From NCBI GenBank assembly GCA_008632985.1, contig QPGO01000080.1, positions 310,001 to 374,000 on the forward strand: a DNA stretch of 64,000 bases. Direction: 5' to 3'. Within the stretch, counting starts at the first letter, position 1. Each line of letters starts with the position of its first letter. The translations under genes and the position numbers were made by a program. Source of the stretch: Psammoneis japonica (lineage: Eukaryota). Of the stretch, positions 1,126-35,630 are shown piece by piece. The notes under the pieces were generated by a model that was not told the DNA's origin, searched no databases, and saw only the letters and a program-made list of their open reading frames with translations.

Positions 1126-2976
1126 CGTTTGCAAGCGAGAAAACAGAAAGCCTGAAGACAACAGAAACACACGCAGAGGCCGGCTTTGGGTGTGTTTTTA
1201 CTGACAGGTCCATCTTTTGATTGGCGATGAGGGATGAGGGGACGGGAAAAAGAAGAAGTGTGCGACCACTAAATTCGGCAAAATTGAGACGCAGTTTGTG
1301 GTCGGCATTTGGCAAGTCATCAAAAAGTGTGGGACACCCGCACCAGAAATGTCCATTTATGTCCCTGTTCACATGTGCGTAGAAGGTCATCTTTTAAGGA
1401 GCAACAAGCAATTGCACTCTATGTGCGATAAATGAAACGAATCGTGCATGTGTCACAAATTGGAAAATGTGTCAATTCTAAACATTCAGTGTTGTTGATT
1501 GTGTAAAATGTGTGGAACAAAAATGAGAATTGTCGCTGTGTCAAGCATGAGCAATCGTGCTGCAACATGGCACAAGAAAGAGAAACAAACAATGGAAAGA
1601 AATTTGGGCATGGCATCAATGGAGACGAGAATGGACAAGGCTCTGGAAGTTCTTTGCAAACAAAATGAAAACTTTGTGCAGAAACGTCAAAAGAAGCTCG
1701 CACTGCCAGCGACCAGGTGGCACAATGAGGAAACGACAAATGGCTTTGCAAGCAGAGCTTGTTGGGAAAAGGAGCGCCAATTGGAAGATGTGATGTGAAT
1801 GACAAAAGTGCAAATTTGAGTGATGCTCAATGTGAAGATGAAGAAGCAACAGATGCCAGCACAGCACATGGTCTCGGAGCAATCTGCGGCGGCGAAGGAA
1901 GTGAAAAAAATTTTGAGTGTGCCGCAGTTGCCATGGGACTCAAAATGGAGTGCAGGCTGAAAAACCATTGTGTGCGAGGGATGTGGGATTGCATGAAGTG
2001 TTGTCAGCCATTGTCAAAACCCGCTGGAAGTCCAGCAATTTAAAAGCAAGAGATGCTCAAGGCGAGGCAATGGCGGCTGTTTGTCATTGATGCCAAGCAG
2101 CTGATTGCACCACCCAAAATGAAAAAGGATCATTTGTTGAGCCAGCGCTGTTGGCAGCATGTGTTTGGCATGGATGCAAACTTTGGTGCTTGTTGTTGCA
2201 AGAATGGAAAATTTGGCAGATCAGCAAAATCTCTTGCAAATTCACAGAGTTTCAAAGGGTTGCTTTGACAAGCCCCAAAATCTCATTTTGCACAAGCATC
2301 ATTGGAAAGGGATGCATGAATGGATGCAACAAATGGAGCACAATGTTTGCTTTTGGTGCAAGCAACAGATGAAAAATGAAAGCAGAGCACCAGTTGTCAA
2401 ACATCTGTGGGGATGTTCAGAATTTCTTGACGAGGTGCAAGATGTTCCTTTCAACATCACCTTTGTGGATGGTTCCTCAATTGTGTGGACAAATGCACTT
2501 GTTTTGTGAGTGGTTGAAAGAAACCTGGTTTCCTTGCTGGCATTTGCAGAAATTTCTTGGATTCTGATCATGACACCTTGTTGAATGATTGCTGGCATTG
2601 TTTCCCCCATCTCTGGCATGCAAAGATGGCAAAGGACCAGTTGTGTTGAATTGCTGGTGTCATGATCAAAAACCAACAGACACACACATGTTCACATGCC
2701 AACAAATCTGACAGGGCCATTCATGTGTTCTTCATCAGATCAATTTGCTCCTGCAGTTTTGTGCCCAAAGAGCATTCGCACAGTTTGGTTTCATCAACAC
2801 AGCAATTCCTTCCAATTGAGTTGAATGGCATGTCATTGCAGAGGGGTTGATTCTGCAATGATGTGCAATGAAGGTGACTGCAATGTGGGCACAACATCAT
2901 TTCAAAGAATTGTGATGCACCATGCATTGCAGGACGAGATGATGTGAAAAATCATGCACGTTGCTTGGACAAGAAG

Positions 2977-3310
2977 TGCACTGTGCTCAAAGAACAAGCA
3001 CAAATGAAAGCAGAATCAAGCACGAAAAGTGAAAATTGTAAGATTTGTTTCTGCTCAATCATTTTGGGTTTCTCTGAACAAGCTCTCAATGGCCCAAAGC
3101 ATCTGCACTGTTCCTGTGGACAAGAGGCCTTTCGGAGAATGAGATCGTGACAACAGATTGTCCGGATGCGATTGACATTGACACACAAGATGTCAACATC
3201 ATCGCATGATCACACTTGCCATCAACCCACGATTGACGTGCAATTAGAGCACAAATTTGTTTGACATCTCAATGTGTGCATGTGCAATGCACACAACAAT
3301 GCATGTTGCA
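2977..3310 (-). repeat. 3' LTR of the older Gypsy element
   Basis: Homologous to 5131-5509 and 9900-10280 (tgcactgtgct...gcatgttgca), with an internal deletion. Confidence 0.85.
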
Positions 3311-5130
3311 CTCGCCTCCCCAGTTGCACATTGGAGTCAGTCGCCAAATGGCATGATCCGACGGACATTGACAGCATCAACAACGTCACCACATTTGATC
3401 TGCACTGTGCCATTGGCATGCACCGTTGTTGTCACATGTGGTCCAACATGGGGCTGTTCTAGTTTCTGCGAGTCTTTCTCAAGCAGTGTCTTTTCTCTTC
3501 TGCACGTGCAAGGAGTGCATCGAGTGTTTTCTCGAGAGTTGTTTTTGTTTAAAATTTTTTGTTTTTGCTGCTGGATGAATTTCCAGACTGCGACATGTTG
3601 GATGTTGAACATCATGTCAGTGTCAAAGACCAATTGTTGTCCAGGTGCAGCTTGCACAGCAGCATGATGCGCAGAACGCACTGCAAATGCTGCTGCTGAC
3701 AACATTCCAGCATGTCTTTCGAGAGTGTCTTGTTTGTCTCACGCTCTGTGCACATGTGTGGCATTGCGTCAAGCATTCTCTCTGACGTTTTTTTGTTCAT
3801 GTGGACAGCACAAGGACCAAATGTCCTGCTGTTCTTTCATGGTGTTGATTGTACACAGCATTTTGCCCAGTGCTCAATGCATGCTCCCAATTGTGGCGCT
3901 CACTTGCTCACTTGTGGATTTCGTGCAGTTTGGCGGGCTTGCTTCATGCACCACATTGCTCTGCTGCACTGCCACGTTTCTCAAGCAGCGATTGACGATG
4001 GTCAAGTGTGTGACCATTTCATCTTGACAATCAATCCTGTGATGGCTGTGAGTTCCATCATGGATTTTTTGCACTTCAGCCATCCATCAGTTGGATTTTA
4101 ATCGTCATTTGGACGTTTCTTTTTGACATGCTGGTGTCATTTTGTCATTCTGAAGGCACTGCTTTTGTGCACTGAGTGGACAAATGTCCATTTTTCTTTT
4201 CTTTTTCTGAATCTTTGGCACATCTCGTGTGTCGACATGATGCATGTTTTAATGTCTTGCCTCGTGCATTGCACAATGCAACCGTGTGGTGTTTGAGATT
4301 GTCTTTTGCCAGTGTGAAGTGGATGCTGTGCAATCGTGCACCAATCTGTCACAGAGTTTTTTCCAACCATCCTCATGCAAGACGATTTTATCCTTGTGAC
4401 ATGAGCATTTTTCAATCTTGCTCGCCTCCACGAAAAGTGTTTGCATGATGTGTCATTTCCAACAATTTGGAGGGAAATGTCTTTGTCCCATTTTAATGGC
4501 AGGACAGTGTTGCAGGATTCAATTTTCCACAGCAAGTCGGCTGATCACGTCTGTCACGATGATGTTCGCCTTGCCCTCAATTTGTTTTATTTTGGGACTG
4601 AAGTTTTCCATTGTAAGTTGCCAATGCATGACTTTGTCCATTGTGTCTTGTGATCCATGTGCACATTAATCTGTTGGACAAACAGCGTGTTTTGGAATTT
4701 CACAAGTTTTTTCACCATGGACAGAAGTTCTTTTTTCCGCTGCAATGTGCAATGTTGAAATTCGTGCATGATGACAACACAGTTTTTGATTTGATGCACT
4801 CCACATTTTTGGAGACTTTTCATTCTGCACTTGTCCTTTTGCCGTTTGACCTTTGTTGAGGTGAATCTGGCTGGCATTGCACAGGAGATCATTGAGACCA
4901 CATGTCTTGACAGTGTCAACGTGTGATGATGAGATGTCGCAGTGTTCTTTGCGTTTTTCTCAGCGTTGCGATTGCTTGAATTGCCTCCATTTTCTTTGCA
5001 ATCGATTGCATGTTGTTGCGTGTGGAAGTCTTGACAGTTCATTTCAAGTTAAATGGCGGAGTTTCTGTTGTCAACCTTCAAAGCGACTGCTCCAGTTGCC
5101 CAATGCTGTTTCAAGCTTTTCTTGTGCAGG

Positions 5131-5509
5131 TGCACTGTGCTTGAAGAACGAGCACAAACGAAAGCAGAGTCAAGTGTGAAAAGTGAAAATCATGAGATTC
5201 ATTTCTGTCCAATCATTTTGGGTTTCTCTGAATGAGTTCTCAATGGCCTGAGGCACTTGCACTGTTCCCACAGACAAGAGGCCTTTTGGAGATTAAGATT
5301 GTGACAACAGATTGTCCGGATGCAATTGATGTTGACACATGAGATGTCAACATCATCGCACGATTGCATTTGCCATTTTTGACATCCGATCAATTTTGTG
5401 TGATTGATCTGTCCTTCGTACGAACCCACGATTGATGTGCGATTGAAGTGCAAATTCACTTAACATCTTTGCATGTGCATGTGCAATGTGCGCAACAATG
5501 CATGTTGCA
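5131..5509 (-). repeat. 3' LTR of the full-length Gypsy
   Basis: Direct repeat of 9900-10280, TG...CA termini, adjacent PPT. Confidence 0.92.
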
Positions 5510-5539
5510 CTCGCCTCCCCAATTGCACATTGGAGTCAG

Positions 5540-8500
5540 TCATCAAACAGCGCAATTTGACGAATGTTGACAGTGTCAAGGACGTCACCGCATTTGATCT
5601 GCACTGTGCCATCAGTGTGTGCCGTTGTCATCACATGTGGTCCAATGCAGGGCTGTTCCAGTTTCTGTGAGTCTTTCTCGAGCAGCATCTTTTCTCCTGC
5701 TCTGTGTGTGCAAGGAGCACATCAAGCATTCTCTCGAGCATTGTTTTTATTTGCAATTTTTTGTTTTTGCTGCTGGATGAATTTCCAGTCTGCAACATGT
5801 TGGACGTCAAATGTCACGTCTCTGTTAAAGACCAATTGTCCAGGTGTGGCTTGCATGGCAGTGTGATGCACAGAACGTGCTGCAAGTGCCACTGCTGACA
5901 ATGATCCAGCAAAAGGATCTTCAGCATCCAGAGGTGCATGTTGTAAATCAAGTGTGTGGATCATGTTTCCCAACACTTGATGTGCGCATTCAACAATTGT
6001 GTTTGCTTGTGGATTTCGTGCAGTTGCAGGCTTGACTTCAATGCCGTGATCATCTTGCACCATGTCCTTAAATTGGTGTCCAATGAACTCACTTCCACGA
6101 TCACAAGTGATCAACGATGGCCAAGGACATCTGCTCAACCATGTCCATTCTAATGATCCAGCTGCAGTTGTGGATTCCTCATTTGGAATTTCCACAACTT
6201 CACACCATCCAGTTGCTGGATCAATCATTGTCGAACACTTCAGGGCTGGGGGTTTCTTCTTTCCCTTGCGATGCATTTTGTATGGTCCAACAAGATCCAC
6301 ACACAGTCATTCCCATGGCACTGATTCTGCACACTTGGGAGGTAAATGTCCGCATTTCTTGTGTTTCTTTTTGAATTTTTGGCACGCCTCACATCTTGAC
6401 ACGCATTTTTGCATGTCTTCACACAAGACAGACCACCACAAGTGTTGTGAGATTGTTTCTTCTGTTCGATTTATGCCAGGGTGAAGAAGGTGCGCATGAT
6501 GCCAATCCATCACTGCCTTTTGCAACGTCTTTGGAACGACGATTTTGTCCTTGTGACATGTGAGCAACCGGTCTTGCTCGCCTCCATGAAAAGTCTTCGC
6601 GTGAATGGTCTTGTTGGACAATTTGGTGAGAATGTCTTTGTCTCATTTTTGTTCAGCATCAAGAACTTTGCAGTTTAATGGAAAGACATTGTCTTGCAGG
6701 ATTTTGGTGGGACCTTCTCAGCCAACTCTTCTGTGCTGAGGTTTTCCACAGGTTCTGTTTTTTTCATCGTAAGTTGGCCAATTGCATCTGCGACAATGTT
6801 CGCCTTGCCCTCAAGGCACATTGTTTTGAGACTGCATTCTTCTGTCATTAAATGCCAACACATGACTGTGTCCGTTGTGAAATTTTTGTGAGATTTTTGT
6901 GGTCTGTGTGTGTGTTTGTCTGTTGGCCAAACAGCATGTTTTGGAACTCTTTCAACATCTCCACTGAGGACAATGGCTCTTTTTCCATTGCAGTGTAACG
7001 CATCTGCACTCCATTCAGCTTGCAGCTGCAGAAGGCAATTGGTCGGTTGTTCTGTGTGACAACCGCCCCCAATTGAGAATTGCTCGCATCAGCATGTCTC
7101 TCAAAGGGTGTGTTGAAATTCGGACATGACAATGGCACATCTTTGGAGATGATGCGCTTCATGTTTTTGAAGGCTTTTTGTTCTGTTTTGGTCCATTGCC
7201 AATTTGCTTGGTCTGAAGCAAGTTTGGCCAAAGGAGCTAGAACATGAGATCATCGAGGCCACATGTCTCGAAAGCAGTTGATCACGCCGATGAAGCGCCG
7301 CAATTCCTTGCGAGTTGCAGGAGTTGCAATCGCGTGAATCACTTCTACCTTCTTTGGAATGGGGCTGATGCCATTGTGGGTGACATGAAAGTCCAGATGG
7401 TCCACTTCGGGTTCAGTGAAAAAAGACGTTTTGGCATTGACCTTCAACCCGGCTTGTTCAAGGTGCAAAAACACCGTCTCAAGCTTCTTGAGGTGGTCTT
7501 GGAAATCACCTTTTGTCAGGCACAGTGTGTCGTTGACACAAGTCCTGACAAACTCCAGACCTGCCATGAGCTCACTCACGTGCTCTTGGAAAACATCTGG
7601 AGCTCCACAGATTCCCACGGGGAGTCCACAGCAGTCACATTTGCCCCAAGGCATGACAATCATGCACAAACGACGTGCACGCAGCATCAATTCAACATGA
7701 CAGCATCCCACATTTAAATCAAGGGATGTTGCACACATGAAACCTTCAACTTTCTGCAGCACATCCTGAACATTGGGCAGAGGAAATGGCGCACGCATTG
7801 ACCTCTTGTTCAGCTCACAAAAGTCGGATAAAAACCAAACTCAACCATTTTTCTTTGGTTGAACAAAGGTTGGAGCTGCCCATTCAGAACAATTTGTTTT
7901 TCTTGACACTTTTAATTTACACAGTTTTTCAACCTCCTTTCAAGCAGTCACCTCCAAGGCTTGTGGTGCGGGAAATGGTTTGGCATGACACGGACTCGCA
8001 CCCGATTTCAACTTTAAATCCATCAAAAAGGTTTTCAAATCTTTCTGAGAGGAAGTTTGGCTGCTTCTGCTCTTCTGGGGTTAGATGAGTTGCTGCTGCT
8101 GTCACATTGTCAAGGTCAGCAGCATGACAATCTGAGTCAAGGATCCAATTGACCCTGTCATTGAGGCTGATCACAGCATGAGATTCCTCAATGTGATTGG
8201 CAATCAACTTAAAAACATCGACATTGAAGAGTGCATCAACATTCTTCATGGGCGCAGTTGCATCCTCCCATTTGATCTCTTCATTCAAGAAGTCTAACAC
8301 TGTCCCAAGACTTGACATTAAAAGTCGCATCCCATGATCATGTCATGATGACTCGAAGAAGAAGGGGCATTGTCAACATGTGCCGTTGTTTCAATCATCT
8401 TGTGTTCATCAAATTCGGGCAAGGAGAATTGGGCTTTGCACCGACCATCAGTCGTAAAGTGCCCTCCTTTGGTTTCCCAAATTTTGGTGGCGGGTGTTTT

Positions 8501-8681
8501 TGTTCTGAGTTGGTTTCCACGTGAATTTGCGCAAAATTGTGGTTGACGATGTTCCGCTGTCAAGGAGAATGCGCAGAGGCTTGTTTTTCGCTTTGCCCAA
8601 TGAGGCACTCACACAAGCGACAACTGCTGGACTAGCACGAATTGCTTTGGCCCTTTTTCTGGGCTTCCCAATGTCCAGCAA
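5540..8681 (-). pseudogene. Gypsy pol (PR-RT-RNaseH-IN), broken by frameshifts and stops
   Basis: The RT catalytic Y-x-D-D motif reads CVND. KCDCCGLPVG replaces the usual KY.Y..LPMG. IAFCS replaces IAFYS. Confidence 0.9.
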
Positions 8682-8708
8682 TGCACGAGACCCCTCTTGC
8701 GGTGCAAG

Positions 8709-9850
8709 TCATTCGTCAGAATCGCTGTGCATCATTTTTTCAAATTGACAGTTCTCCTCATCAAGGGTGTCAGAGTCGCAATCTTTGCTCTTGCGCTTTT
8801 TTCCCTTGTTTGAGGAACTCGCTTTGAGTGTTTTTTGAACTGCCTGGACTGCCGTGGCATTCAACTCTTCCTTGCAAGAGGCATTTTCGTCATCGCAATG
8901 TGACCACGTGTGATTGCCATTTGAACGGCGCTGTTTTGGATCACGCTCAATGTTTCCACAGCATTCTTCTGCCAGCTTCTTAATCAACCAGCATTTGTCC
9001 GTGTTGTGAGTGGATTTTTCGCATGAAATGCACCACTTCTCGGACTGAGAATTTTCGGCACTGTGTTGGTGACCATTTTTGGAACCACGTTTGGCGCCAT
9101 TCTTGGCTTTCGATCCAGCACTGCCACTGGGATCAGCCTTGACATGAATGCTGTCAAATGCATCCTCTGCAACCTCTGGGCACTCCAGAAACTCAACCAA
9201 CCCATTGTGGGTGTGTTTCAAAATTTCGAGACCTTGGACGGTCGACTGATGCTGCCACTTTTGAGGTGCAAGATTAAAGAGGATGTTCTTGAGCTCATCC
9301 TCCTCGATCTTCTGATCCTCTCCAAAGGAAGGATGGAATTTGAGGTCTTCGTTGACTTCCTGCACCCAAGCAGCAATTTTGCAAACTTTCTTGGACTCTG
9401 TCTTCTTGAGATCGCGACGCAAACAACGTTTCTGAATCTGGAGTGCATTCTTGGGAAACACATGTCGCGCAAGGTGCTGCAGGCATTTCTCAAAGCTTCC
9501 TTCTTCAGATTCGTCTTCAACATTCGTTGCTCCATTCTCAAAAGCATGCAGAGCATCTCCTTGCAACAGCACACGCATGAGACGAAACTCATCCGCTTGC
9601 TTCTTGATGTTCTGGCCCACTGGAAGTTGATCGCAGCTCTTGAGAAATTCGATGCACTTGGGAACGCCCTGCTTCTTGTGGTGCTCGACATTGACAGTGC
9701 AGGTGTGACCATCCTTCTTCTTGGGATAAAAACACTGCTCCATCTTGAGACACTGACTTGGTTTGAGCATCTTCAGCTCAGAATTTGATTCCAACGGCTG
9801 AGGAACGATTTTCTCTTGCCTTGACAAAGTCTTGGCATTGGCTGCATGAG
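8709..9850 (-). pseudogene. Gypsy gag
   Basis: ORF 8709..9926 directly inside the 5' LTR, with a CCHC-type knuckle WCISCEKSTHNTDKC; one Tyr in 405 aa. Confidence 0.8.
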
Positions 9851-9899
9851 GTGAAAGCTTCATCTGCGACTTGTCACCTTCTGTGGTGTGCATGCACAA

Positions 9900-10280
9900 T
9901 GCACTGTGCTCGAAGAACAAGCACAAATGAAAGTGGAGTCAAGCATGAAAAGTGAAAATTACAAGATTTGTTTCCATCCAATCATTTTGGGTTTCTCCGA
10001 ATGAGCTCTCAATGGCCCAAGGCATTTGTGCTGTTCCCACAGACAAGAGGCCTTTCAAAGAATGAGATCGTGACAACAGATTGTCTGGGTGCGATTGACA
10101 TTGACACGTGGGATGTCAACATCATCGTGCGATCATGTTTGCCATTTTTGACATCTGATCAATTCTGTGTGTGATTGATCTGTCCTTTGTGCGAACCCAC
10201 GATTGACGTGCAATTGAAGTGCAAATTCATTTGATGTCTTCATGTGTGCACATGTGATGTGCATGACAATGCATGTTGCA
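9900..10280 (-). repeat. 5' LTR of the full-length Gypsy
   Basis: Direct repeat of 5131-5509, followed by TSD CAGG. Confidence 0.92.
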
Positions 10281-12448
10281 CAGGTGATGTTTTGAAGTCA
10301 CTTTTTGTCAGGCACAAACGATCATGTGTGGTTGTTCTGACAACTTCAAACCTGTCATGAGTTCACTCATGTGTTGCACAAAAATGTCTGGGGCTCTGTG
10401 GATTCTTGTTGGAAGTCTGCAGCACTTGTTTTTTCCCCACGGCATGACTTTTGTGTTGGCAAGACATGTGCTTTTTTAATTTGATGTGACAGTGTCCCAC
10501 ATTCAAATCGAGTGAGGTCATGTGCATGAAACCTCCTGGTTTCTGAAGCACATCCTGAACATTTGGTGGAGGATGTGGTGTGCATGCTGGCCTCTTGTTC
10601 AGTTCACGAAAGTTGGACAGAAACCGAGCTTTGACCATTTTTCTATTTTTTTTAAGGTTGGAGCTGTCCATTCAGAACAGCTCATTTTTCTTTGGGACTT
10701 TTAGCTCACAGAGCCTTTCAATCTCCTTGCAAGTCACCTCCAAGGCTTGTGGAAACAGGGAACCTTTCGCGTGATGCAGTTTCAAGCCAGATTTCACTGC
10801 AAGGTTTTCCAGTCCACTCGCCTGGAGAACCATCAAAAAGAGATTTAAATTTTTCAAAGGGAAGATCAACTGCTTCAGCTCCTCTGGAGCCAGACAAGTT
10901 GCCGCAGCTGTCACATTGTTGAGGTTGGCAGCATGACAATGTGAGTCGAGGACCATTGGTTCCATCATTGACTCCATTCACGGTGTCACATTTTTCAATG
11001 TGATTGGCACTCAGCTGGAAACATCGGCTTCGAAGAGTGGATCAACATTCTTCATAGATGCAGTTGCTTCTCCCTCTTTAATTTCTTCAGTTGCACAGTC
11101 CAATGTGATTTCAATGCTGGACATTAAGTCGTGTCTCATGATCGTGTCACATGGACTTGAAGAAGATGTTGTGTCATCAACATGTGCTGTTTGAACATCA
11201 GCATGTCTTAAATTTGCACAGTCAGAACTGAATTTGGTGTTTGCCAGCAGTTGCAAAGAGCTCACCCTTGGTTTCCCAAGTTTTTGGTGGCGGATTCTTG
11301 TGTTCTCAACTTTCGCATGAATTTGCGCAAAGTTGTGGTTGCTTGTTTCTCTCCTTCCCCAAGGAAGCATTCACGCAAATGATGACTCCTGGACCAGTGT
11401 GAATCATTTCTGCCTTTTTTCCAGGCTTCCCAATGTCCAGTGGAGCATGCAATTCGTGAACAGAGCCAAGTTGTTCTTCAGATTCACTCTGGATCATCCG
11501 ATCAACTTGGCAATTTTCTTCACTGAGGGTGTCAGAATCCAAATCTTTGCCCTCATGCTCTTTTTCTTTGTTCAAGGAACTCGCTTTGAGTGTTTTTTGT
11601 ACCGCCTGATCAATCATGACGTTCAACTCTTTTTTGCGAGCGGCATTTTTGTTGTCGCGATGCGACCACATGCGATTGCCATTTGAACGGTGCATTTTTG
11701 GGTCTCTTTCAGAGTCACTGAACAAATGCTGACACACTGTCACGAACACAGGCAGTTTATGTGCTGTTGGTGATTGGTCCACTTTTGCTCATTTAGTGGC
11801 CCCGGCAGCACAACATCTCACAATTCTGGAACCTGTTGATGCTGTTCAACACTCTGTCTTGTCTCACACCCAATTCTCAGCCATCATGGTGGCATTTGTT
11901 CACTTTGTCAGAGCCAACACACTGTGATGTTCATTGCCTGGAATGGGCATCACAAACGGTGTGACGGCATCGTTGCGATCGATCGATTTTTGTGGCTGGC
12001 ACCATGTTGGTCCCATGGTTGCTCACGCAATCGCTGAGTCCTTTGCATGTGTCAATGTTCATGGACATGAACGACATGCTCTTGGAGACCAGAGCTGAGA
12101 TCCATCAGACATGACATCAGTGGACGGAATGTTTGATCACGTGGATGGAACATGTTGGCCAAGGCACACAAACATTCGTGACAAAGACAACACAATGATT
12201 TGTGCATTGAGGTCTGTTGTTTGATCACACACATTTCATCAATCAGAGTGTGTTGTCAAACTGTTTGGACACTGCACATGTGGATGCATGTCTGTTGCTG
12301 ATTGTCACTCAGGAGTGACGCCGCCTGCTCGTGGGTTCGCCAAGTGGAAACCGCCAAATCGGCACGAGAACCACACATTTTTCTCACTTTTCCCCACTCA
12401 CACAAGTGGATGCTCACGCGTTGAAACGCGAATGTCTGCTGATGCACC

Positions 12449-14577: not shown

Positions 14578-14772
14578 GCTGGATCAAAGCAAAGAATGGC
14601 AGAGGTGGACAGTGTGAGTTAGAGTTGGCAGTGATTTTGGGTGGTGGGCCGAACTCAGAAAATGCAGCACTTGTGACTCAATCCACTTCAAACTTGGCAA
14701 GTTGCTGTCAATCACAGTGACAAATTTTAACATTTTACTTCCCATTGTCCACACAAATTTCCTGCTTCACAA

Positions 14773-22910: not shown

Positions 22911-25705
22911 CTTTTGGAATGGATTGAGGGCTTTGTGAACAATGCACCAGAATTCAACAATGATCCTGGTGCTTCCACACCACCACCCAGTGTGATTGTT
23001 GCACCCACAAGTGCTGATCATGGCCAAAACCTGCTCCGAGAAGCTGTGCTCTTCTTCTTCCACTTCAAGGGGGCATGGGTGTGTGGTCAAGTGTGAGAGG
23101 TTTGGCTTGGCAAAATTCATGACTCTAAGGACTCTTGTGACATTGTGGGTGACACAATTGTTGGAGAGCTGCAGAAAGAGCCGTGCAAAATTACAGCTGT
23201 GCCAGATGCCAATGACAGAGAAGCTCTTGTTTGCATGAGTGCCAATGAAGGAAAATGTTTCTGCAGGCGCATTGAGAGAAAGCAGAGAGAAGAATGGGAG
23301 CAGATGGATGAAGCTGGTGCTGGTGCATGTGTTCCTGAAGGAGGTCATGTGGACAAGGACCATGGCCCAACAAGGCTTGGGTTTGCAGTCATTGGGGACA
23401 TTGCTTTCTGCAAAACTGTCCTGGGTCAGGAAGGCACTCATGGGTTCTGTTGGAGATTGCTTTGGCAGCAAAACAAGCAAGTCAAAGATGGATGGAACAA
23501 TGTTGCTTGTGACATGAAGATGATGGAACAGATCATCAACATTGCATCCAACATTGTTGCAAATGGGGAAACAGCCAAAATGGAAGAGGGAGCTTGGCTT
23601 GAAGGAGAGGATCCATCCACCCAAATGAGAGGGAACATGGGGTGGACCATGGGTGTGCCAGTGAAGTGGTCAGTGGAAACACAGCTGTCAATGTCAACGC
23701 CATTTCCAACGCCATTCAACAATGGGTCAAGATGATCATCAATGCTGACAAAGGGAACCCTTGAATGTCTGCACCCCCTGCAAAGCTGGGAGTCATGGGA
23801 TGAACCCCAGCAGCCCACTCTCCAGCTTGCAATCCCAAAAAGCAGGATCCAGTGGCTGTGCTCCCCAAATGAGGAAAGAGCACACAATGTGCACCCCCCA
23901 GCACAGTTGTCAAAGGGTGCATCCACTGACATTGCTGCACCAACAGCACAAATGTGGGGCACAGGACAAACGCTGGCAATGACATCAGGAGAACTGTCAA
24001 AGAGTGTGGAAGGACTGACTGCACCCCTCACAAGCACAGGTGGCATGGCAGCATGATGGATGTCCCTCACACCACAACCATGAGGTGGTGCATTGCAGCT
24101 GCAGATGGACAATTCTGGATCTCCTGGCAGCAACTTCTTCATGACCCCACTGTTGGCTGCATTCAGACACTGTTTCTTTGATGGACAACAGTGGTGGTGG
24201 CTCCTCCATGCCTTTGAGCCACTGGAAGGGGACAAACGGCAATCCACGATGCACTGGAAAACAAAAAATGGGTGTGTGGAAATGTTGCTCTGTTGCCAAA
24301 ATAAAAAAGATGTCACAAAACAGACAAATTGTGAGTGAAATTTTGCTTCCCTTTTCCAACTGAATCAAACAAAATTTTTGGAGAGCATGGGAAAAACAGA
24401 GATTGCATTTGAGAAAAAAGATTGAGCATCACCAAAAGAGAGCTTGCAGCCAGCTGAGTGGCTGGATCATGTGCAGACACATGTGGCTGGGGTGTGACAA
24501 CTTGAACAATTTTGGAAAATGTGTCCTTTTCTGTTGGAGAAACACAAGTTGTGTTCAGGAATGGTCAATTGAAATCACACAGGAAATGGGTTCTCACAGC
24601 CTTTCTTCAACTCAAGGGTTTTCTGCCTTTTTTTCTCCATGTCAAGGGTTTCCTTTTCCTTCCTTGTGTTGGGTTCCCATGTCAGGGGTGCTTGGCATCC
24701 CAAGTGAGTTGTCCCCAAAATTCCCTTGAGTTGGCATCCCTCCATTTGGTTGCATCATGCCAGACATTTTTTGTTTGATGACAATTTCTTGATGTCACAT
24801 GATGTCATCACTGCCACAGTGTGAAGCACTCTTCTCACTGCTCTCACCCCAGCTGCTGATGTGACCATCACACTGTCAGACCATGATCACCACACTGTGG
24901 TGCCATCACAATGTGTTGGATGACATCGCTGGCACACTGTCAAATTCATTGCTGTTTTGTGGTCTGGCACTGCCAAAGACATCAGCACCATGTCATCAGA
25001 CATTTTCTTGCTCATCCACCTGGATGCATTGTTTCACATCAGCACCATCAATGTCGGCGCTGTCAAATTGCATTGCTCATTGCAGCAAGGCAATGGGAAC
25101 CTCCCTTGCTGGCTCAGTTTTCCTTGTTGATGCAACTCCCCAGCCCCAGTGTCATTTTGGGACAGACATCTGAGAAGCACTGTCTTTCACAATGGCAGGT
25201 TGACATGACATTTTGTGGTGTTGATGCCAAGTTGTTGAAGAAGCTCTTGACTGTCCTCCTCCAACTCCAGAGGAAACAGTCACTCTGGATCAGTGTCATG
25301 TGTGGTTGAGAAATGAAATTTCATGCAGAGAAAAAGAAACTTGGACTCATTTGCTGCACAAAGCCAACAAAAATGTCAAATCCAAAAACACGCACTTGTG
25401 CCAAGGCACTGTTGCTGAGTGTGTGAAGAAAAGAAGGGCTCACCATGCCAAATGTCACCATCATTGTTGACCAAGAATTGAGGAGGCAAAGATGAAGTCA
25501 AGCAAGTTTTTGGCCCCATTGGCAGCAACAGCCTCCAATGTGCAAAAACTTCTGCTGCACATGAGCCCCCAAAAGGGTGTTGCATGGCAGGGGAGAAGCA
25601 CAGGCAGGTGACACCAATGCTGAAAACAATGTGTTGTTGGTGGGCTTGAAGAGCATCCTGAATTTTATGATCCAACATCTGTCAAGAAAGATGAGATGCG
25701 TTTGC

Positions 25706-26381
25706 AGGATTCTGGGGGCTGTTGACCTTGAGGGGTGCCTTGTTGAAGAGCAATGCTGCCATTGATTCTTTGGTGGGATCAAGGGTTTCCAGTGGGATGA
25801 GTTCTGTGAAGATGCACTTTCTCAACAGATCAACAACATTGTCCTTGGATTGCGCATGTTGTGCATTGTCCAAAATTGATCTAGATCAATGACGATGCTG
25901 CCGCAAAGGGCATTGAAGATCTGAGTGGTGTCATCATTGCATCCGTGTGGTGCAAACACTGTGGAGATCTTGATGATGCCATCACAAGCCTGTTTCTTTG
26001 GAGTGTCAGGTGCCATGGTTGATGAGGTGCACAAAATGTTTGGTCACACAGGATTTTGGGGGCTGTCAACCTTGAGGGGTGTCTTGTTAAAGAGCAATGC
26101 AACCATCAATTCTTTGGTGGGATCAAGGGTTTCCAGTGGGATGAGTTCTGTGAAGATGCACTCCCTCAACAGATCAACAACACTGTCCTTGGATTGTGCA
26201 TGTTGTGCATTGTCCAAAAATTGATCCAGATCAATGATGACACCACCACAAAGGGCATTGAAGATCTGAGTGGTGTCATCATTGGTGCAAACACCATGAA
26301 GATCTTGCTGATGCCATCTTGAGCCTGTTTCTTTGGAGTGTCAGGTGCCATGGTTGATGAAGTGCACAAAATGTTTGGTCA
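25706..26381. repeat. ~340-bp tandem duplication in a decayed coding-like sequence
   Basis: ggattYtgggggctgt...gcacaaaatgtttggtca occurs twice (~25706-26046 and ~26051-26381); duplicated ORFs MCTSSTMAPDTPKKQ. Confidence 0.88.
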
Positions 26382-26517
26382 TGCACACGCAGAAACCTGG
26401 CATTGTTCTGCAGAGCCTGTGTGCTGATGAAAAAGTTGGGCTCAGGATCAAAAATGGTGGCCTGCTTGTTCAGCTCACAAACTGAACAAATCAAAATTGG
26501 GTTTTTGTTGCAGAGAA

Positions 26518-26813
26518 TGACAGGATTTGAACAGGATTTAGGTGCACGCGAAATGTCGTGCGCTGTTTGGTTTGCTGCGCACAGTTTTGTGTGCTTTGGT
26601 TCCGCGCGTTCGCACACAATGCAGTTTGCTTTCGAGCCACAAGGCTCACAAGAACAATGACAGTAGCCCGATTGTACCGACTTGCACGTCTTTCGGCTCC
26701 TGCAACGGTCTCTGAGCGGAGACTCATCTGCTGTTTAGACAGCAGCAAGGAGTTGTTGTTTGAACTCTTGCCATTTGCCTTCAATTTCTGTCAGAGAAAC
26801 AAGTGACCTGACA
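26518..26813 (+). repeat. Copia 5' LTR
   Basis: Colinear repeat of 35638-35933 at offset 9120. Confidence 0.92.
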
Positions 26814-26991
26814 ATGCCTTCAATTTCTGTCAGATTGACAGTCTTGCTCATTGTCAACCCATTGAGCAACCGCCATCGTCGTCGTTGATTTACCGACGAC
26901 GCCATTTCAATTCTGCGTGCACCTCCGTGTGTGTTCTACATGCATCGGCAAGTCTGCGCGCATTCAATGCCAGGCATCAGCAGGATTTTAA

Positions 26992-28922
26992 CGGGGACCC
27001 CCCGCAAGTCTGTACAACCATCCGATGGAGCATTTTTTGCGAGTTGAACGCAACTCTTCTCGTGTTGTCACCGCGGTGACCTTCCTTTGAAGTCTGTTGC
27101 ACACCAACCTTGTTGTGGCTGTCCTGCTGGCGATCCTTTTCGATGAATTGTTTGTTCCACTCCTGTTGCTGACATTTGGTGAAAAGGATCGCCAGCAGAA
27201 AGTGTTTTGCAACAACAACAATTGCGTCTCAATGTCACCGTCACCAATCAGCAGCGACACCCCAAACGCCTCCAAGCCAACTCAAATGGAAGAAAAAGCC
27301 GACAAGTGGAAGCATGCAATCCCGGCAGATGATGCATGGGGCCAGCATGGAAGAAAACCAGGGTTTCAGTGCCATGGGTGAGTCGCAAAATGTCAATGTT
27401 CCTTGTCAGTGTTGCATCAACGTCTCGCATCTCACAAACGTTTGTTTGGTCGTTGCAACTGTCCTGCTGTCAATGCTTTCACATAAGTCGTTTTTTCTGC
27501 TCCTGTTGGTGACATTTGATCGAAAGGATTGATGGCAGCAGGTGTTTTTATGACAACAATTGTTTGTCTCTATGTCGCCGTCGCCAAGCCAGCGACACAA
27601 AAAACGCCTCCACCAGGTCACCCAAATGGAAGGTAAAGCCGATGGAAAGAAATGAAGGAAGAGGCGCAAGCAAGAGACACAGAATGCCCCAAGCTGTTCC
27701 TTTGTTGACAGAGAAGTTTTGAACATGAAAATCACCACAAGCTCTGTCTTTTGTGGATTGGTGGCAACAAACAAACATGCATTCAGTCAGAGGCGCCGGA
27801 AACAAAAAAGGAAAGTCAAGATGTCTCCTGTGGGATGTTCACAATGCCTGCCCATCAGAGAATGACAGTTTGAGGGTTTGAAACATGGTCTGAGCTGGGA
27901 CAACTGCAACTAGAAACACTGCTGTTTGTCAGCATGCACAGCATTCGCCACAACTCTGCATTCCAGGTTTTGATTCTGTGGCTCTCATCCCAGGTTGTGT
28001 CCAACAGAAAGACTCCACAGAGTGTTACATTGGTGTCTTGTGATGGCAATTGCTACAGTGCTTGAGCAACTCCTGCACAGAGAAACACCCAACACACCAG
28101 TCGTGTTGCGTTCTCGCGGATGGGCTTGACTGTGGTCGTTGTCGAACAGAAACACTCTACAAAGCATTGCGTTGGTGTCTTGTGATCATGTGTGAACAGT
28201 TGTTGCTGTGCTCAAGCAACTCCCACACAGAGAAACCGCTCTCAAGCGTCATCCTGCCGTGTGCCGGCACGCAAGGGCATGCTGCTCCACCGCAGCTCAT
28301 TTGCAGAAGCAATCGACTGATCAACCAATTTCTTGCCCGATTCTTTGGATCCGCCATCATCAACAGTCTCGGAATCTGACTCAATGTGACGTGTTTCCGA
28401 ATTGCCAGAAGCATCGGGAGAAGCATGACCTTTGTTCTTCTTGCATGTGCGAGTGGCCTGCTTCTGACAAAGTCTGAATTGCCTCCACCACTGCTGCACC
28501 GTCCTTTTCCCTCGCGTTGCTGAGGAGATGTTTGTTCCCAATCCTTTGAGGAAGACACCCTTCAAAATTCTGTGCATCACAGCAACTGTGTTGGAGTTCT
28601 TCACCCGCCAGAGCAACAGCATGGTGGCACTTGCCTCTGCAGTCGTTTGCTGGGAGGGCAACTGAATTTGATGCGCCTTAGAGGCAGATGAGACATTGGA
28701 CTTGTGGAGTCCTGGAAAGCCACCAGATTGCAGTGACTTCAGCATGAGGTCACTGTCCATCCATGCACATGGAACCGCAGCTGGAAAAGCGGCAATAAGA
28801 AGCCACACGGCCTCGACAATCTCCACAGTTGGTTTGCTGTTTTTGTGATTAAAAAAACATCACGCAGCAACCACGGAGCTGAAGGAGCTACGGACAACGT
28901 ACAGACTTACGGGGGGTCCCCG
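26992..28922. mobile_element. Non-autonomous TIR DNA transposon with TTAA target-site duplication (superfamily uncertain, piggyBac/Kolobok-type target)
   Basis: 24-bp TIR CGGGGACCCCCCG(C/T)AAGTCTGTAC; TTAA at 26988-91 and 28923-26; inserted in the Copia 5' UTR; internal diverged duplications; no transposase recognised. Confidence 0.85.
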
Positions 28923-29703
28923 TTAACGTCACCGTCAAGTCTCCTTGCCGCTGGACATCTGGATTGATTGTGCTGCCTTTTGTCGCTGAAGACATGCATT
29001 CAACGGTCATGTCCAAGTCTATCCTTGATCCTCATCCCTTGACATGCCCATTCAACGGTTAACGGTCAAGAACCCCACATGTTCAAGGATCTTCGTCGCT
29101 GAAGACATGCACACACACATGTCTTCACGGCCAAGAACTTGCACCGACTCTTTGGACTGCGGCTTTGCTGCCACTCTACAAGCACACCAAGTCCACTGCA
29201 CCTGATCTGCCCCGGACCACTGGTGCTCTGCAGTTCTGCCAGGTCCACGAGGACGACTGTGAGAGCAAGCAGCCGTGGTTGCAGCCTGCATTGGGGCGAG
29301 GGTGTTTTCCCACGTTTGTTCGTTCGTCCACAGTGCCTGGCGCCTGCATCAACTGGCCAGCCTGATTGGGAAATCCAACCAACATAAAACAAGAATGGTT
29401 CGGGGGTCTTGTCCACCTCTGGTCAGCTCACCTGCAGGGGTTTGCAACCCGCCACTCCGCTCGCAAGCAACCCAAAGCGCCGCTGGCTGCGGGTTCGGAC
29501 GTGCCGGCACAACTCTGCAGACCGGATGGGAAGTTTAGCACTCAACAACGAATGGGGTGACACAGCCCGGCGACTTCTGATTTTAAGATAGTTCAAGATT
29601 TCAAGTCAAGTCCATTTCAAGTCAAGTCCATTCTCACCCAAGTTTCAAGTCCACCTTCGCGTCCCAACCAGAATCGCTTGTTCTGACACCGCTTTTGTCT
29701 GCC

Positions 29704-32700
29704 ATGGTTCTCACTTGTCAGCAACAAACTGATGGTTTCAAGCACCTTGTTGGAACCGTGCTTGCCCAAGGTGCTGGAAGCCCTCTTGGTTTGGCTTTGA
29801 CCCACGACGGCACGGACTCGCATCAAGAACTCTTCACGTTCACACCGCCCCAAATCGACTCGCTTGAGTGCGACAACGGCGCTGATGTGATCCCTTTGCC
29901 CCGTGGTTGTAAGAACATGTTAGCAGCTCTAGTTAGTCTGTACATTGTCAAAGCACACAAAGGTCTTGATGTTGCCAATGACTCCTCGTTGTTCACGCAT
30001 GAGGATTTCCTTGCCTGCTGCCTCAGCCCCGACTGCATGTCTTCTGTGTCCGTCGGCAGCTCGCCTCTTGCACCTCCGCACGTCACCAACCCGACCAAGG
30101 CACGTGACCTGGTGTGAGACTTCAAGCGAGGTGTCAAGCGTGACCCCACTGCTTTCACGGCTCTCAAATCCGACAAGCAGTGGCACACTTGGCACACCTC
30201 ACTTGTGGCACAAGCCCGTGCCCAAGACGTTGAGTGCATTCTAGACTCGTCGTACAAACCGACCAGCCCCAAAGACAAACTGCTCTTTGCTGAACAGCAA
30301 AAGCACATGTTCGCCGTCTTCGAACGCATCCTTCTCACTGACAAGGGCAAGGCTCTCATTCGCGAAAATGTGGGGTCTTCTGACGCCCAGACCGTCTGCC
30401 GCGCCTTGTCCGAGCATGCGCTCGCCTCCACCCGCGCATCCATCGAGTCCTCCACCTTGCTCACGCACCTCACCACCGCACGTCTTGGTGATGGCACTTG
30501 GAAAGGTCTGACCCACGGGTTCATCCTTCATTGGCAGGATCAGTTGCGCAAGTGCGAGGCACTCATCCCGGCCAGTGACCACTTCTCTGAAGGACAGAAG
30601 CGTGTCATGCTCGAGAATGCCGCACATCCTGTCGAGGAACTCCGCGCCGTCAAGAACCAAGCTGATCAGCATTGCACGCAGAGTGGCAAGAGCCTCACAC
30701 ATGATCAACATTGTGGCTTGCTCCTCTCCGCGGCGGCCCAATGCAACAGCACGTTTCAACCCAAGACGACACCTCGAGCTCCCCAACGCGCCATGTGCGC
30801 ACATGACGTCTGCTCCGAGGAACCATCCGATGATGTGTTCTGTGACATCGACAGTGACATTGACGTCCTTCAGGCTGGCGCTGCCCACACTCGCGGTCCC
30901 AGCCTCACCGGTGACCAATGGAAACGTCTCCCCCCCGACCACCAACGGATTTGGGATTCGTTGCCCCATTCCTCCAAGGCGATCATCCTTGAGCATTCTC
31001 GTCTGCCTCCCCGCAACCCGCGAGCCAGCAACTGCCATGAGTCCGTTGCGGCCAACCTTCACGACCAACGACTTGGGAGTGACGGTGATGTCAACTTGTC
31101 CAACACGACTCCTGCTGACTCTGGTGACCCCGCTCCAAATGTGGATGCCACTTCAGATGATCCCATCCTGGCGCACCTCACCAAGTGCAAGCCACTGCCA
31201 CCCGGTGATCTGCACCGCCTGTTGTCTCCTAACCAAGCCTCCAACGCCAGTCGACCGGGCCCATCCACCACTCCCTCTACCTTGCCTGCTCCCACAGATG
31301 ACACAGAACTTAACGGCCACACTTGCCGCCACGTCAATGACCACAATGTCGTTTGCTCTGCCTCCGCTCATCGCTCCACCTCTCGCCAAGTCGACGTTCA
31401 GGGCATTGACGACCATCAATTGGTGGACATCCCCATTGTCACCACTGGTGCTGTCATTGAGACACAGCGTGGTCCCGTCATCGCCATCCTCCATCAGTGC
31501 GCATGCACGGGAAAGGGCAAGACCATTCACTCCTGCGGCCAGCTCGAATGGCACAAACATGATGTCAACGATCGCTCTGTCAAGGTGCCCAACGGCTTGC
31601 AATGTGTCGCCACCCCTGATGGCTGTGTCACCCCAATTGACATCAAGGGCAGCCTGCCTTGTGTTGCCATGTGACCCTGCACTGACGCCGAATGGGACAC
31701 CCTGCCCCATGTCATCCTTGCCGGTGATGACACATGGGACCCTTCCATCCTTGATCACTCTGTCGCTGACGACAACCAGTGGTGCGACGTGATCTCTGAC
31801 CTGCAGGACGATCCCACTGCTGACCTGTTTGACGAATGCAGCAACTGCCATCACCGTGTCGTTGTCAACAAGGCCATCATGTCTGCCACCTTCTCTGCCA
31901 ATCACGCGTCCGCCCTCGATGACCACCTCATTCCGAATGACGACGTGTTCTGCGAGTGTCATCTACACGCGATTGACCCCAAGGATGACAACGTTCCAAC
32001 CCCGGAGCGCACTGTGCAGCCCAAGGACCCCCCATGCGAGTCTCTTCGGCCTTGCTTTGGTTTCCAACCTGCCGATGCGGTTCGTCGCACTTTTGACTGC
32101 ACCACGCAGTGCGCCCGCATGCCCGCCGGTGCTCACCTTAAGAAGGCCTGAAATTCGCCCAACCCTGCCCTTAATGTCCACCGCCGCAACGAGCCTGTCG
32201 CCACTGACACCATCTGTGCCGACACCCCGGCTGTCGACTCTGGTTGCACCAGCGCCCAACTGTTTGTTGGCACTGAGTCTGCTGTCACTGACGTCTGCGG
32301 CACCAAAACGGACAAAGAGTTTGTCAACACACTCAAGGATCAGATCCGTGAGTGTGGTGCTCCATCCAAACTCATCAGCGACCGTGCTCAAGTTGAGATC
32401 AGCAACAAGGTGCTCGGGATCCTGCGAGCCCTCTTTGTCTCCAGCTGGCAAAGTGAGCCTCACCAGCAACACCAAAACTTTGCCGAACGTTGATGCCAGA
32501 CCGTGAAGCGCATGGCGAACACTGTCATGGACTGTTTCGGTTTGCCTGCCCACACATGGCTGCTGGCGCTCATGCACGTGTGCTTCATGCTCAACCACAC
32601 AGCGTCCCCACGTCTCCACTGGCGCACGCCCCTCGAGACTCTCACTGGCTCGACCCGGACATCAGCCCATTGCTTCGCTTTCACTGGTGGGAACCCGTGT

Positions 32701-35630
32701 GCTTCCACCTCGATGACTCCGGTTGGCCGTCTGAATCCCGTGAGTTGCGTGGACGCTTTGTTGGCATTGCTGAGCACGTCGGCCACCAGATGACCTTCAA
32801 GATTCTCTCTGACGACACTCAGAAGATCCTCTGCCAGTCCAACGTATGATCCGCTGCCACCGATCCTGCCGTTCGAAACCTGCATCTTGATCCTCCTGAT
32901 GGGGAGCCACCTGAACCCATCATCAAATCTCGCCATGACGACAACCCCGTCGATTCACCCGATGGGGAGATCAGGACACCCAAGATGCCAGTTTTCGATC
33001 CGCAAGACATCATCGGACGCACCTTCCTCATGCAGCCACAAGAGGACGGACAACGCCACAGAGCTTGCATCGTCAAGGCCGTCGAAGACCACGAATGGAA
33101 AGTGAACGGCAACCCTGAGCTCACTGGGTTCATCTGCTCTGTCAACAACGACGAATGCGAGGAAGTCCTGGCCCACAACGACATCATGAATCACATTGAG
33201 CAAGAAGACGAAGACACCACTGTTTGGAAATTTCGATGCATTGTGTCACACGAAGGACCTCTGAAGCCTCATGACCCAACCTGGAAAGGCTCAAGCTACA
33301 ACATCATGCTTGAATGGGAAAGTGGGGAGATCACGTCCGAGCCTCTTGCCATCATCGCCAAGGACGACCCTGTCACCTGTGCCATCTGTGCACGAGAGAA
33401 CGGACTTCTCGACACTGATGGCTGGAAGCGGTTCCGCACCATCGCGAGGCGCCAGAAGAAGCCACTCCGCATGGCCAACCAAGCCAAGCTTCACTCCTTC
33501 CACACTGCACCTCGCTACAAGCACGGATGCGAAGTTCCCCGGAACTGCAAACACGCCATGTCACTAGATGAACACAACGGCAACCGCAAATGGGGAGACG
33601 CAACTAATCTCGAGATGGACCAACTCGATGAATATGAAGTCTTTCATGACTGCGGGCCCTCCGAGTCTTCCACTCCTCCTGCGGGACACAAGAAGATCCG
33701 AGTGCACCCAGTGTGCGACGTGAAACACGACGGCCACCACAAGGCACGACTCGCAGCCGATGGGCACCTCACGGACGCACCCATCGACAGTGTCTACTCC
33801 GGAGCAGTCTCCCTCCGTGGCCTTCGGCTGATGGACGCGTTCCAGGTCTAGGTGGGACCACGCACTGCTGAACTGTGACATCGATGGTTTTTTGAATCGC
33901 GTCGTATGTCGCGCACGTACATTTCTACGTGATTTTGGCGAAATTTTGCATCATTTTACAGTGCAATTGTCAGGCGATCCATTCAACAACTTTTAACATT
34001 TTTTTCTTCTACGCCATTCTCGAGTGTCTCAAGAATGGTGCAGGGCAGGCGCATTGTCCAAAACTTCGAGTACGAACAGAGATGTGTGCACTGCAAACTT
34101 GGCCGTTTGTTTTGTGTCAAAGACAAATGCATCCATTAACCAGAGTGCGAACTACAGAGCTCGCACGCAGAATTCTACGGGGCAAATGTCACAAAAAGTC
34201 CCACCTGGGACTGGAACCCGTCGATGATTTTCCTGGCCGAACTCAACGAGTTGGAGACATGGGCCACCGACATTGGCAATGCCCACCTTGAAGCCACCAC
34301 CAAGGAGAAGCTGTGCATCGTAGCTGGACCCAAATTTGGCAAACTCGAAGGCCACATTCTTGTCATCCACAAGGCCCTGTGTGGACTGCGCAGCTCCGGC
34401 CTCTGCTGGCATGAGCGCTTCGCCGACTGCCTGTGAGCTGAAGGTTTCTTCCCCTGCCGCGCCAAACCCGACATTTGGATGCGCAGGAACGGCGACCACT
34501 GCGAACACATTGCCGTTTATGTGGATGACCTCGCCATTGCCATGAAGGATCCTCAATCTTTCATTGATGCTCTCACGGAAAAGCACAAGTTCAAGCTTGA
34601 GGGTGCGGGATCGATTGAGTTCCATCCAGGCTGCGACTTTTCCCAGGATCCTGACGGCACCTTGTGCCTGTCTCCGCGCAAGCACATTGAACGTATGGTC
34701 GACAGCTGCACACGACTGTTTGGGGAGAAACCTGCCACCAACACCCTGTCACCTCTGGAGAAGGGTGACCACCCCGAACTGGACACTTCCGAACTGCTGG
34801 GGCCCGATGGCATTCAACAGTTCCAGTCTCTTGTTGGTTCACTCCAATGGGCAGTGTCCCTTGGTCGAATTGACATTGCCACGGCCGTCATGTCACTCTC
34901 TAGCTTCCGAGCTGCACCCCGTCAAGGCCACTTGGATCGTGCCAAATGCGTCTGTGGGCACCTCTCCAAGATGCGACACGGCGCTCTCCGCGTTTGCACG
35001 GAAGAGCCCGACCATTCGGATCCCCCTGCTCCAGCCCATGAATGGATGCATTCCGTGCACAGCAAGGCAGAAGAGATGATCCCGAAGGATGCTCCACCGC
35101 CCCTTGGCAAGTTCGTCACTGCCACCCACTACGTCGATGCAAACTTGTGCCATTGCATGCTCACCGGACGCTCTGTCATGGGAATGCTCCACTTCCTCAA
35201 CAAATTCCCGGCTGATTGGTTCTCTAAGAAGCAAGCCACCGTGGAGACTGCGACCCACGGGTCTGAATTTGTTGCCGCAAGGACTTGTGTCGAGCAGATC
35301 ATCGACCTGCGCATCACCCTGCACTGCCTCGGCATCCCGATCCGTGACATCAGTCACATGTTCGGTGACAACAAGTTGGTTGTAGACAGTGCCACCATCC
35401 CGCACTCCAAGTTACACAAGCGACACACCGCACTGTCATTCCACCGTGTGCGCGAGGCAATTGCCTCTGGTTGCCTTGAGTTCCACTTCATCAAAGGATC
35501 CCGCAACCCTGCTGACATTCTCAGCAAGCATTGGGGTTGCTCCCAAGTCTGGGACCTTCTCCACCCCCTCATGTTCTGGAACTTCATTCCATCCAAAGTC
35601 GAATCTGTTTCTGTGACTCCTCAAGCAAAC
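29704..35630 (+). pseudogene. Copia gag-pol, with stops, frameshifts and pervasive Y->C/H substitutions
   Basis: ORFs 29695.., 30205..31674, 31789.., 32985..33851, 34224..34436 and 34479..35780 are colinear with a Copia polyprotein. Confidence 0.9.
33834..34222. mobile_element. 389-bp MITE with ~25-bp imperfect TIRs and a 4-bp TSD (possibly Sola-type) inserted in Copia RT
   Basis: Left GACGCGTTCCAGGTCTAGGTGGGAC; right (reverse complement) GACGGGTTCCAGTCCCAGGTGGGAC; TSD GATG at 33830-33 and 34223-26. Removing it restores GLRLM-IFLAELN. Confidence 0.9.

Follow-up and report, generated by a model that had tools for sequence, protein, structure and literature searches.

Mutators of DNA are commonly recognised by the bases that flank their targets, such as TC for APOBEC3, WRC for AID and CpA for repeat-induced point mutation (RIP), and a flank preference is the usual handle for finding the enzyme behind a mutator. 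The closest described counterpart of the pattern treated here is the TpA-restricted hypermutation of viral DNA integrated in the chlorarachniophyte Bigelowiella natans (Mettrop et al., bioRxiv 10.64898/2026.01.13.699255), the one case of TpA hypermutation in print. According to that preprint, the changes are nearly only A>G and T>C, all of them at TpA and yielding TpG or CpA; they are restricted to foreign or mobile DNA, they leave clusters poor in TpA and rich in CpA and TpG, and an adenine deaminase is proposed. The same traits mark a stretch of 64,000 nucleotides from Psammoneis japonica (GenBank assembly GCA_008632985.1, contig QPGO01000080.1, positions 310,001 to 374,000; hereafter the window), with the difference that the hypermutated DNA consists here of retrotransposon relics instead of viral inserts and that the TpA rho is about 0.05-0.1, against 0.45 in Bigelowiella. 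The main text of the preprint, in its accessible portion, mentions neither flanking nor neighbouring bases, nor context, trinucleotides, tetranucleotides or TTAA, and gives no flank rule. The hypermutation there was measured as ongoing and line-specific, with 231 de novo mutations, and the sites in its Table S2 may hold context data. The flank rule described below, by which the bases around a TA step affect its survival, adds a new feature to a kind of system that has itself only recently been described.

A second point of comparison is RIP, which acts in Neurospora and other ascomycetes (PMC7296669). Both processes work at the DNA level on repeats and mobile DNA, hit one dinucleotide on both strands, wreck reading frames and show a flank preference. 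Their direction is opposite: RIP makes TpA from CpA by C>T, whereas TpA is destroyed in the window, so the chemistry must differ (cytosine in RIP, presumably adenine here). RIP is triggered by duplication and depends on RID/DIM-2.

Relics of transposons make up most of the window. TA is almost erased from three stretches of it (1501-38000, 43501-47000 and 50500-64000; these domains and the TA sites in them are given without strand), in which its observed/expected ratio is 0.0-0.2 per 2 kilobases (kb) and those of CA and TG are 1.5-2.1. The main domain, 1501-38000, is made of transposon relics and contains the span 2000-35600 to which an earlier sequence-only reading of this DNA referred; the second, 43501-47000, has 1-7 TA per 500 base pairs (bp) against 25-34 expected, with 16 TA left. 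Together they keep 203 TA in 40,000 bp, or 5.1/kb. The unmutated parts of the window hold 343 TA in 9,701 bp (35.4/kb), and 80 intact gypsy relatives, taken from metagenome loci, have a density of 57.2/kb; none of the 80 is TA-poor (observed/expected 0.51-1.33, median 0.72). Spared are 38001-43500, a within-window baseline with 18-33 TA per 500 bp in most bins, and 47001-50500, which carries a split 5'-3' exonuclease gene and recurs as 1-1500; 47001-49701 served as baseline, and the remainder repeats 1-800. Erasure is thus limited to mobile DNA, with the gypsy and copia relics inside the TA-erased domains and the two spared stretches outside them. The third stretch, 50501-64000, is a near-identical second copy of 800-14306 (1-14306 and 49702-64000 are 99.8% identical); it is not independent and was excluded from every count.

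The direction of change can be read from tyrosine (Tyr) codons. Columns with Tyr in at least 70% of intact homologues were taken from alignments with gypsy relatives (the best 120 each of 613 and 626 protein matches at the thresholds) and copia relatives (at least 150 proteins). At 45 of these 65 columns the relics now encode cysteine (Cys, 25) or histidine (His, 20), and TA was therefore the ancestral state, turned into TG or CA. The 51 columns in the gypsy relics comprise 21 Cys (TGY), 14 His (CAY), 4 Tyr, 4 phenylalanine (Phe) and 8 other residues, and the 14 in the copia relic 4 Cys, 6 His, 2 Tyr and 2 Phe. Tyr makes up 0.3% of the relic reverse transcriptase (RT)-RNase H region, against 3.3-4.9% in 12 homologues. 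CpG decay accompanies the loss of TA, with arginine codons changed to Cys, His, glutamine, tryptophan or stop and threonine to methionine. Only four sequencing runs, none of RNA among those listed, contain this stretch; they come from one sample, probably the source of the assembly. In contigs of other copies from that sample, TA stands opposite a TG or CA of the window at 7 of 40 places and the reverse holds at 3 of 40; the 40 were those listed among 521 differing places, and they informed the direction of change but were kept out of the context statistics.

Each copy changed on its own once it had inserted, and both DNA strands were affected. This follows from three observations. The long terminal repeats (LTRs) of the gypsy relic, which started out identical when it inserted, are now 84% alike, and 60 of their 61 differences are transitions; pairs of paralogous relics show 160 CA/TG double differences beside 43 sites with TA facing TG or CA; and Cys in one copy faces His in the other at 7 of the 12 Tyr columns covered by two copies (hand count). 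The TA steps that remain are old and not newly formed, because 50 of the 57 survivors that could be compared have TA, TG or CA in the paralog.

Which TA steps survived? The sequence-only reading held that the residue is dominated by YTAR (Y, pyrimidine; R, purine), in the form of TTAA, CTAG and TTAG, and proposed TAY as the target. All 19 sites it named, 10 TTAA and 9 CTAG, are present to within 1 base, and it correctly saw that some TTAG in LTRs did change: at 26539 and at 35717, TTAG in one LTR is TTGG in the other. Among the 179 TA left in 2000-35600, YTAR accounts for 83 (46%), compared with 65 of 343 (19%) in the unmutated DNA of the window (odds ratio 3.7, p = 1e-10) and 5103 of 21332 (24%) in the 80 intact relatives (odds ratio 2.75, p = 9e-11); RTAY accounts for 17 (9.5%), compared with 29% and 27%. 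YTAR is therefore enriched as claimed, but it forms no majority, and TTAA carries most of the signal, CTAG little. By class, the residue consists of 47 TTAA, 31 GTAA/TTAC, 24 CTAC/GTAG, 23 CTAA/TTAG, 18 ATAA/TTAT, 13 CTAG, 10 GTAC, 6 ATAC/GTAT, 6 ATAG/CTAT and a single ATAT. The TTAA survivors, of which the first lies at 2040-2043 and the last at 34136-34139, represent 26% of the total, against 4.1% in host DNA and 7.4% in the intact relatives. CTAG is hardly enriched (7.3%, against 6.1% and 4.5%); with TTAA removed, CTAG and CTAA/TTAG together still stand at 36 of 132 against 51 of 329 (odds ratio 2.0, p = 0.005). Residual NTAN proportions are unlike those of unmutated DNA (chi-square 83.0 with 9 degrees of freedom (df), p = 4e-14) and of the relatives (131.4, p = 6e-24), so the match that would have refuted the sequence-only reading is absent; overall, the ten-class counts give 83.6 and 123.6-125.0 (9 df) against the two baselines.

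Log-linear models of survival, with either baseline (unmutated DNA of the window or intact relatives) as offset, define how the flank acts. Uniform survival leaves a deviance of 123-156 (9 df). Counting the TAY strands of each site, as the sequence-only reading would have it, leaves 57-60 (8 df), and counting the TAA strands 46-55 (8 df). The sole model not rejected is a four-level additive one with one factor per half-site (9.9-11.1, 6 df), in which a strand with T after the A survives at 0.16-0.20 of the TAA level, one with C at 0.32-0.55 and one with G at 0.48-0.61. The order of susceptibility, which we consider probable, is TAT > TAC ~ TAG >> TAA. G resembles C and not A, so the axis runs from A to T with C and G between them, and is not one of purine versus pyrimidine. 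What stands of the TAY proposal is that the flank matters, that the relevant base, if A is the one edited, is that 3' of the A on the same strand, and that TAT and TAC are better targets than TAA; its two-level split is rejected. An estimator free of any baseline, the ratio of TA/converted sites to CA/TG sites per context in paralog pairs, returns the same ranking: survival is 0.27 for CTAG (5 sites only), 0.20 for TTAA, 0.14 for CTAA and for GTAA, 0.06 for CTAC, 0.05 for GTAC, 0.04 for ATAA, 0.03 for ATAG, and 0 for both ATAC and ATAT.

Nor is a single 3' base the whole target, since the second base 3' of the A (+2) is equally important. Adding it to the model gives a likelihood-ratio chi-square of 91.8 (3 df), and 46.5 without flanks that are possibly products themselves (CA, TG, CG, TA). 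In each of four subdomains A occupies +2 in 42-57% of survivors, against 26-30% in the baselines, and T at +1 is depleted in all of them (6-11% against 24-27%); position +3 has no effect on survival in the same four-subdomain test. Among the half-sites of survivors, TAAA is raised 2.9-fold and TAGA 2.3-fold, and TACT, TATT and TAGG are down to 0.14-0.26. TTAAA/TTTAA makes up 35 of the 47 surviving TTAA, as the hexamers ATTAAA (17), GTTAAA (7), CTTAAA (6) and TTTAAA (5). Because their wider flanks vary, these sites do not represent a single motif that was copied.

Survival cannot separate a rule on the base after the A from one on the base two before it, because both predict the same survivors. 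The products bear on this, as in N1-TA-N2 a change to TG alters the pair beside N2 and a change to CA the pair beside N1. Informative sites are Tyr codons (Cys versus His) and paralog sites with TA in one copy. The product tracks the adjacent flank at 35 of 48 such sites (p = 0.002), with 23 of 33 among the Tyr codons and 12 of 15 among the paralog sites. The log-likelihood of this adjacent-flank rule is -30.0; a model without any strand rule reaches -33.3, and the mirror rule on the -2 base, which is ruled out, only -42.4. That the product follows the adjacent flank supports a T-A-N-N target on each strand. Composition tells the same for 9.7 kb of gypsy sequence compared with the 80 relatives, where 6 of 6 asymmetric classes have the same lean and ATAA goes mainly to ACAA. 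The family baseline was used there; a composition-only product test against the unmutated DNA of the window was set aside for its noise, as the gains in it did not match the losses.

The best explanation, and one we hold to be somewhat likelier than its negation, is a DNA-level mutator that acts after insertion and turns TA into TG or CA (A:T to G:C at TpA) on both strands, under a two-base flank rule per strand. The two bases that flank a base pair of the TpA step on the outside would set how often that pair is altered. On the strand that undergoes A>G, the target would read 5'-T-A-N1-N2 (N1 and N2 now being the two bases 3' of the A), with N1 in the order T > C ~ G >> A, a protective A at N2, and a neutral base after it. 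A TA would persist only where neither strand is hit, and the survivors accordingly collect where both half-sites are poor, in TTAA, chiefly as TTAAA/TTTAA, and then in (C/G)TAA and TA(A/G)A, with ATAT, ATAC and ATAG all but gone. Presumably adenine is deaminated to hypoxanthine by an enzyme that reads sequence and covers about 4 bases of each strand, and the mutator may be aimed at repeats or silent chromatin. More tentatively, and at less than even odds in our judgement, the flank rule could be the substrate fingerprint of a new DNA adenine deaminase that reads about 4 bases on one strand and is aimed at transposons.

Several points weigh against this account. The per-strand rule gains just 2.2-3.3 log-likelihood units over a strand-blind one, and the Tyr codons in TTAY became 4 Cys and 3 His, although mainly Cys would be expected under a strong rule. 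The Tyr and paralog sets overlap by one site or a few, and all counts (203 survivors, 48 sites informative on the product) come from a single window of 64 kb. The absolute survival of TTAA is uncertain, at 0.81 by host DNA, 0.28 by relatives and 0.20-0.45 by paralogs, because both baselines are stand-ins, one made of host genes and the other of relatives whose proteins are 53-66% identical. At sites of surviving TTAA the paralog has kept TA in 3 of 17 cases, no higher than the 5 of 33 in other contexts. Finally, flanks may themselves be products (TATA>TACA), which was controlled by exclusion only.

Could the duplex, and not one strand, be what is recognised? How often a TA step is attacked would then depend on its shape or flexibility in the surrounding hexamer, with chance deciding which of the two base pairs changes. 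The survival data alone cannot discriminate here, as the additive model is symmetric; the near-even split of the TTAY codons fits, and for the Tyr set alone with window-based rates the two log-likelihoods are equal (-22.89 and -22.87). The pooled products, however, follow the adjacent flank, and all six asymmetric classes lean as the per-strand rule predicts. G and C flanks, which stack more strongly by nearest-neighbour energies, protect less than A, and duplex stability was discarded as the cause on that ground. We regard recognition of the duplex as unlikely. A mutator itself indifferent to flanks could also leave this residue if TTAA(A) were shielded by a bound protein or by a base modification such as adenine methylation, and TTAA is indeed set apart from all other classes. 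Yet the graded ranking of the ten classes fits the additive half-site model without a special TTAA term, shielding leaves the depletion of T at +1 in all subdomains unexplained, and TTAA does convert (14 of 17 paralog partners), so that shielding appears quite improbable.

The survivors might instead mirror the composition of the transposons, or be new TA from ordinary mutation, with no context preference at all. Tetramer use does differ between the intact relatives and host DNA, as the TTAA shares given above illustrate. Set against the family baseline, TTAA nonetheless reaches 28 of 68 survivors (41%) in the gypsy zone and 23% overall, with the chi-square of 123.6-125.0, and the paralog states mark 50 of 57 survivors as ancestral. 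Back-mutation would find twice the number of precursors for ATAA/TTAT that it would for TTAA, and on this ground and that of the ancestral survivors it is rejected as the source of TTAA. We judge the whole explanation by composition or new mutation very improbable. Even less credence goes to a polymerase of the DNA polymerase eta (Pol eta) type, acting as WA>WG, or to editing of the RNA by ADAR before reverse transcription. Of both one would expect A>G that favours a T or W on the 5' side, and the motif of Pol eta is WA. But paralog differences of the AA/AG kind number 67 of 975 and those of the GA/GG kind 49 of 713, 6.9% in each case (14.3% at CpG sites), and AA is not depleted (observed/expected 1.0-1.4 in both domains). 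The rise in AA>AG that a Pol eta model predicts is absent, and Pol eta is therefore unsupported. Editing of the RNA intermediate is excluded because the LTRs of one element diverged after insertion and both strands were hit. The context of ADAR is 5'UAG (PMC10661471, a review). Repeats edited by ADAR also carry clusters of A>G, preferably after a U. The enzyme requires double-stranded RNA, however, and would leave changes that are already present when the element integrates, confined to one strand and favouring a 3' G, whereas here both DNA strands changed after integration and TAG is not preferred over TAT or TAC.

The adenosine deaminases TadA and ADAT2 are closer in chemistry, converting A to inosine that is read as G, and their 5' pyrimidine (U or T) matches the obligatory 5' T found here. 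In the natural tRNA substrate of TadA, a U precedes the edited A34. The sequence-only reading likened the target to that of TadA; the likeness does not extend beyond the shared 5' T. A review table gives the context of TadA/ADAT2 as 5'ACG (PMC10661471), with a 3' C followed by G. The window shows T > C ~ G >> A instead: TAT outranks TAC as a target, and TACG half-sites survive comparatively well (1.5-fold up, a figure confounded by CpG decay). Amphioxus BjADAT2 acts on DNA in the context 5'GAA and prefers hairpin loops in single-stranded DNA (PMC10354150); that context differs from T-A-(T > C ~ G >> A)-(not A).

The elements that carry the pattern are of two kinds. A Ty3/gypsy relic with both LTRs (5131-5510 and 9900-10281) occupies 5131-10281 on the reverse strand; polyprotein P0130 matches 5539-8479 by tblastn, and Pfam RVT_1, RNase H and integrase domains are present. 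Three further gypsy pieces lie on the same strand. The partial second copy at 2976-5023 comprises an LTR-like part (2976-3712), an integrase C-terminus (3340-3711) and an RNase H piece (4525-5023). A more diverged third fragment from the protease-RT part, at 10291-11704, has 68-71% DNA identity to 7499-8942 (tblastn 10294-11148). A fourth, from the RNase H-integrase part, at 13599-14577, has 85-86% identity to 6200-7178 (tblastn E = 2e-74). The copia-type relic spans 26515-35938 on the forward strand, with LTRs at 26515-26818 and 35635-35938 that are 93% alike and a polyprotein remnant at 29704-35606; the tblastn match of P0243 (1881 amino acids) covers its residues 1-1880. This match is broken by a 393-bp piece at 33830-34222 (residue 1420 of P0243 lies at 33833, and the match resumes at 34224), which is absent from contigs of all four source-sample runs and has 11 TA against 27.5 expected, compared with 3-5 against 22-26 in its flanks; it looks like an insertion that this copia copy acquired later, or like a piece that was targeted less. 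A tandem pair of units of about 340 bp, 89-92% alike and differing mostly by transitions, lies at 25705-26381, immediately upstream of the copia LTR. Over 26500-36000, thousands of source-sample contigs match copia at 90-99% likeness with very high summed depth, so the copia family is abundant in that genome; in run X1 their differences are mainly the four transitions (A>G at 107, T>C at 116, C>T at 112 and G>A at 85 places).

In the rest of the TA-erased DNA, 15000-26500 and 36000-38000 contain unclassified repeats without a Pfam domain and with many long open frames, the latter because TAA and TAG stops were destroyed. A Pfam scan of 127 stop-to-stop frames found domains of gypsy, copia and exonuclease only. 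CpG too is nearly gone from 2001-3000, 22001-26500 and 36001-37500 (0-5 per 500 bp against about 25 expected) and merely halved in the rest of the mutated domain; these sub-stretches may be older or more heavily methylated repeats. At the border of unmutated and mutated DNA, 43063-43556 forms an inverted repeat with arms of 210 nucleotides, 91% complementary, and a spacer of 74 nucleotides. The split host gene of the spared stretch, at 47025-49649 on the forward strand, matches exonuclease N- and C-domains (PF02739, E = 3e-37 at 48606-48986; PF01367, E = 5e-19 at 49206-49649) and, weakly, DNA polymerase A; a protein search with the 442-amino-acid frame 47025-48350 found no relatives of similar length and nothing at E 1e-5. 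The repeated ends of the window, 1-14306 and 49702-64000, are direct repeats of each other about 49.7 kb apart, which could be a true tandem duplication, two haplotypes or an assembly effect. The two copies differ at 25 places, by 11 indels of one base, most of which fall in homopolymer runs, and by 14 substitutions, of which 11 exchange CpG with TpG or CpA and none is at TA. CpG decay is the sole process visible since this 14-kb duplication, with no TA change among the 14 substitutions.

A flank rule distinguishes an enzyme that reads sequence from nonspecific damage and from the errors of a polymerase, and the one described here corrects the simpler TAY idea and rules out the Pol eta reading. 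It predicts which TA will remain in mutated repeats, so that annotators can tune their detectors, and it sets the oligonucleotides for assays of candidate deaminases (TATT or TACT versus TAAA). It also provides a testable signature for the Bigelowiella mutation list and for other algae. If the rule is indeed the fingerprint of a DNA adenine deaminase, the same fingerprint would be expected in the de novo TpA mutations of Bigelowiella; the stramenopile and rhizarian systems would then be joined in one enzyme family, and the enzyme would be a natural sequence-selective A-to-G editor of DNA.

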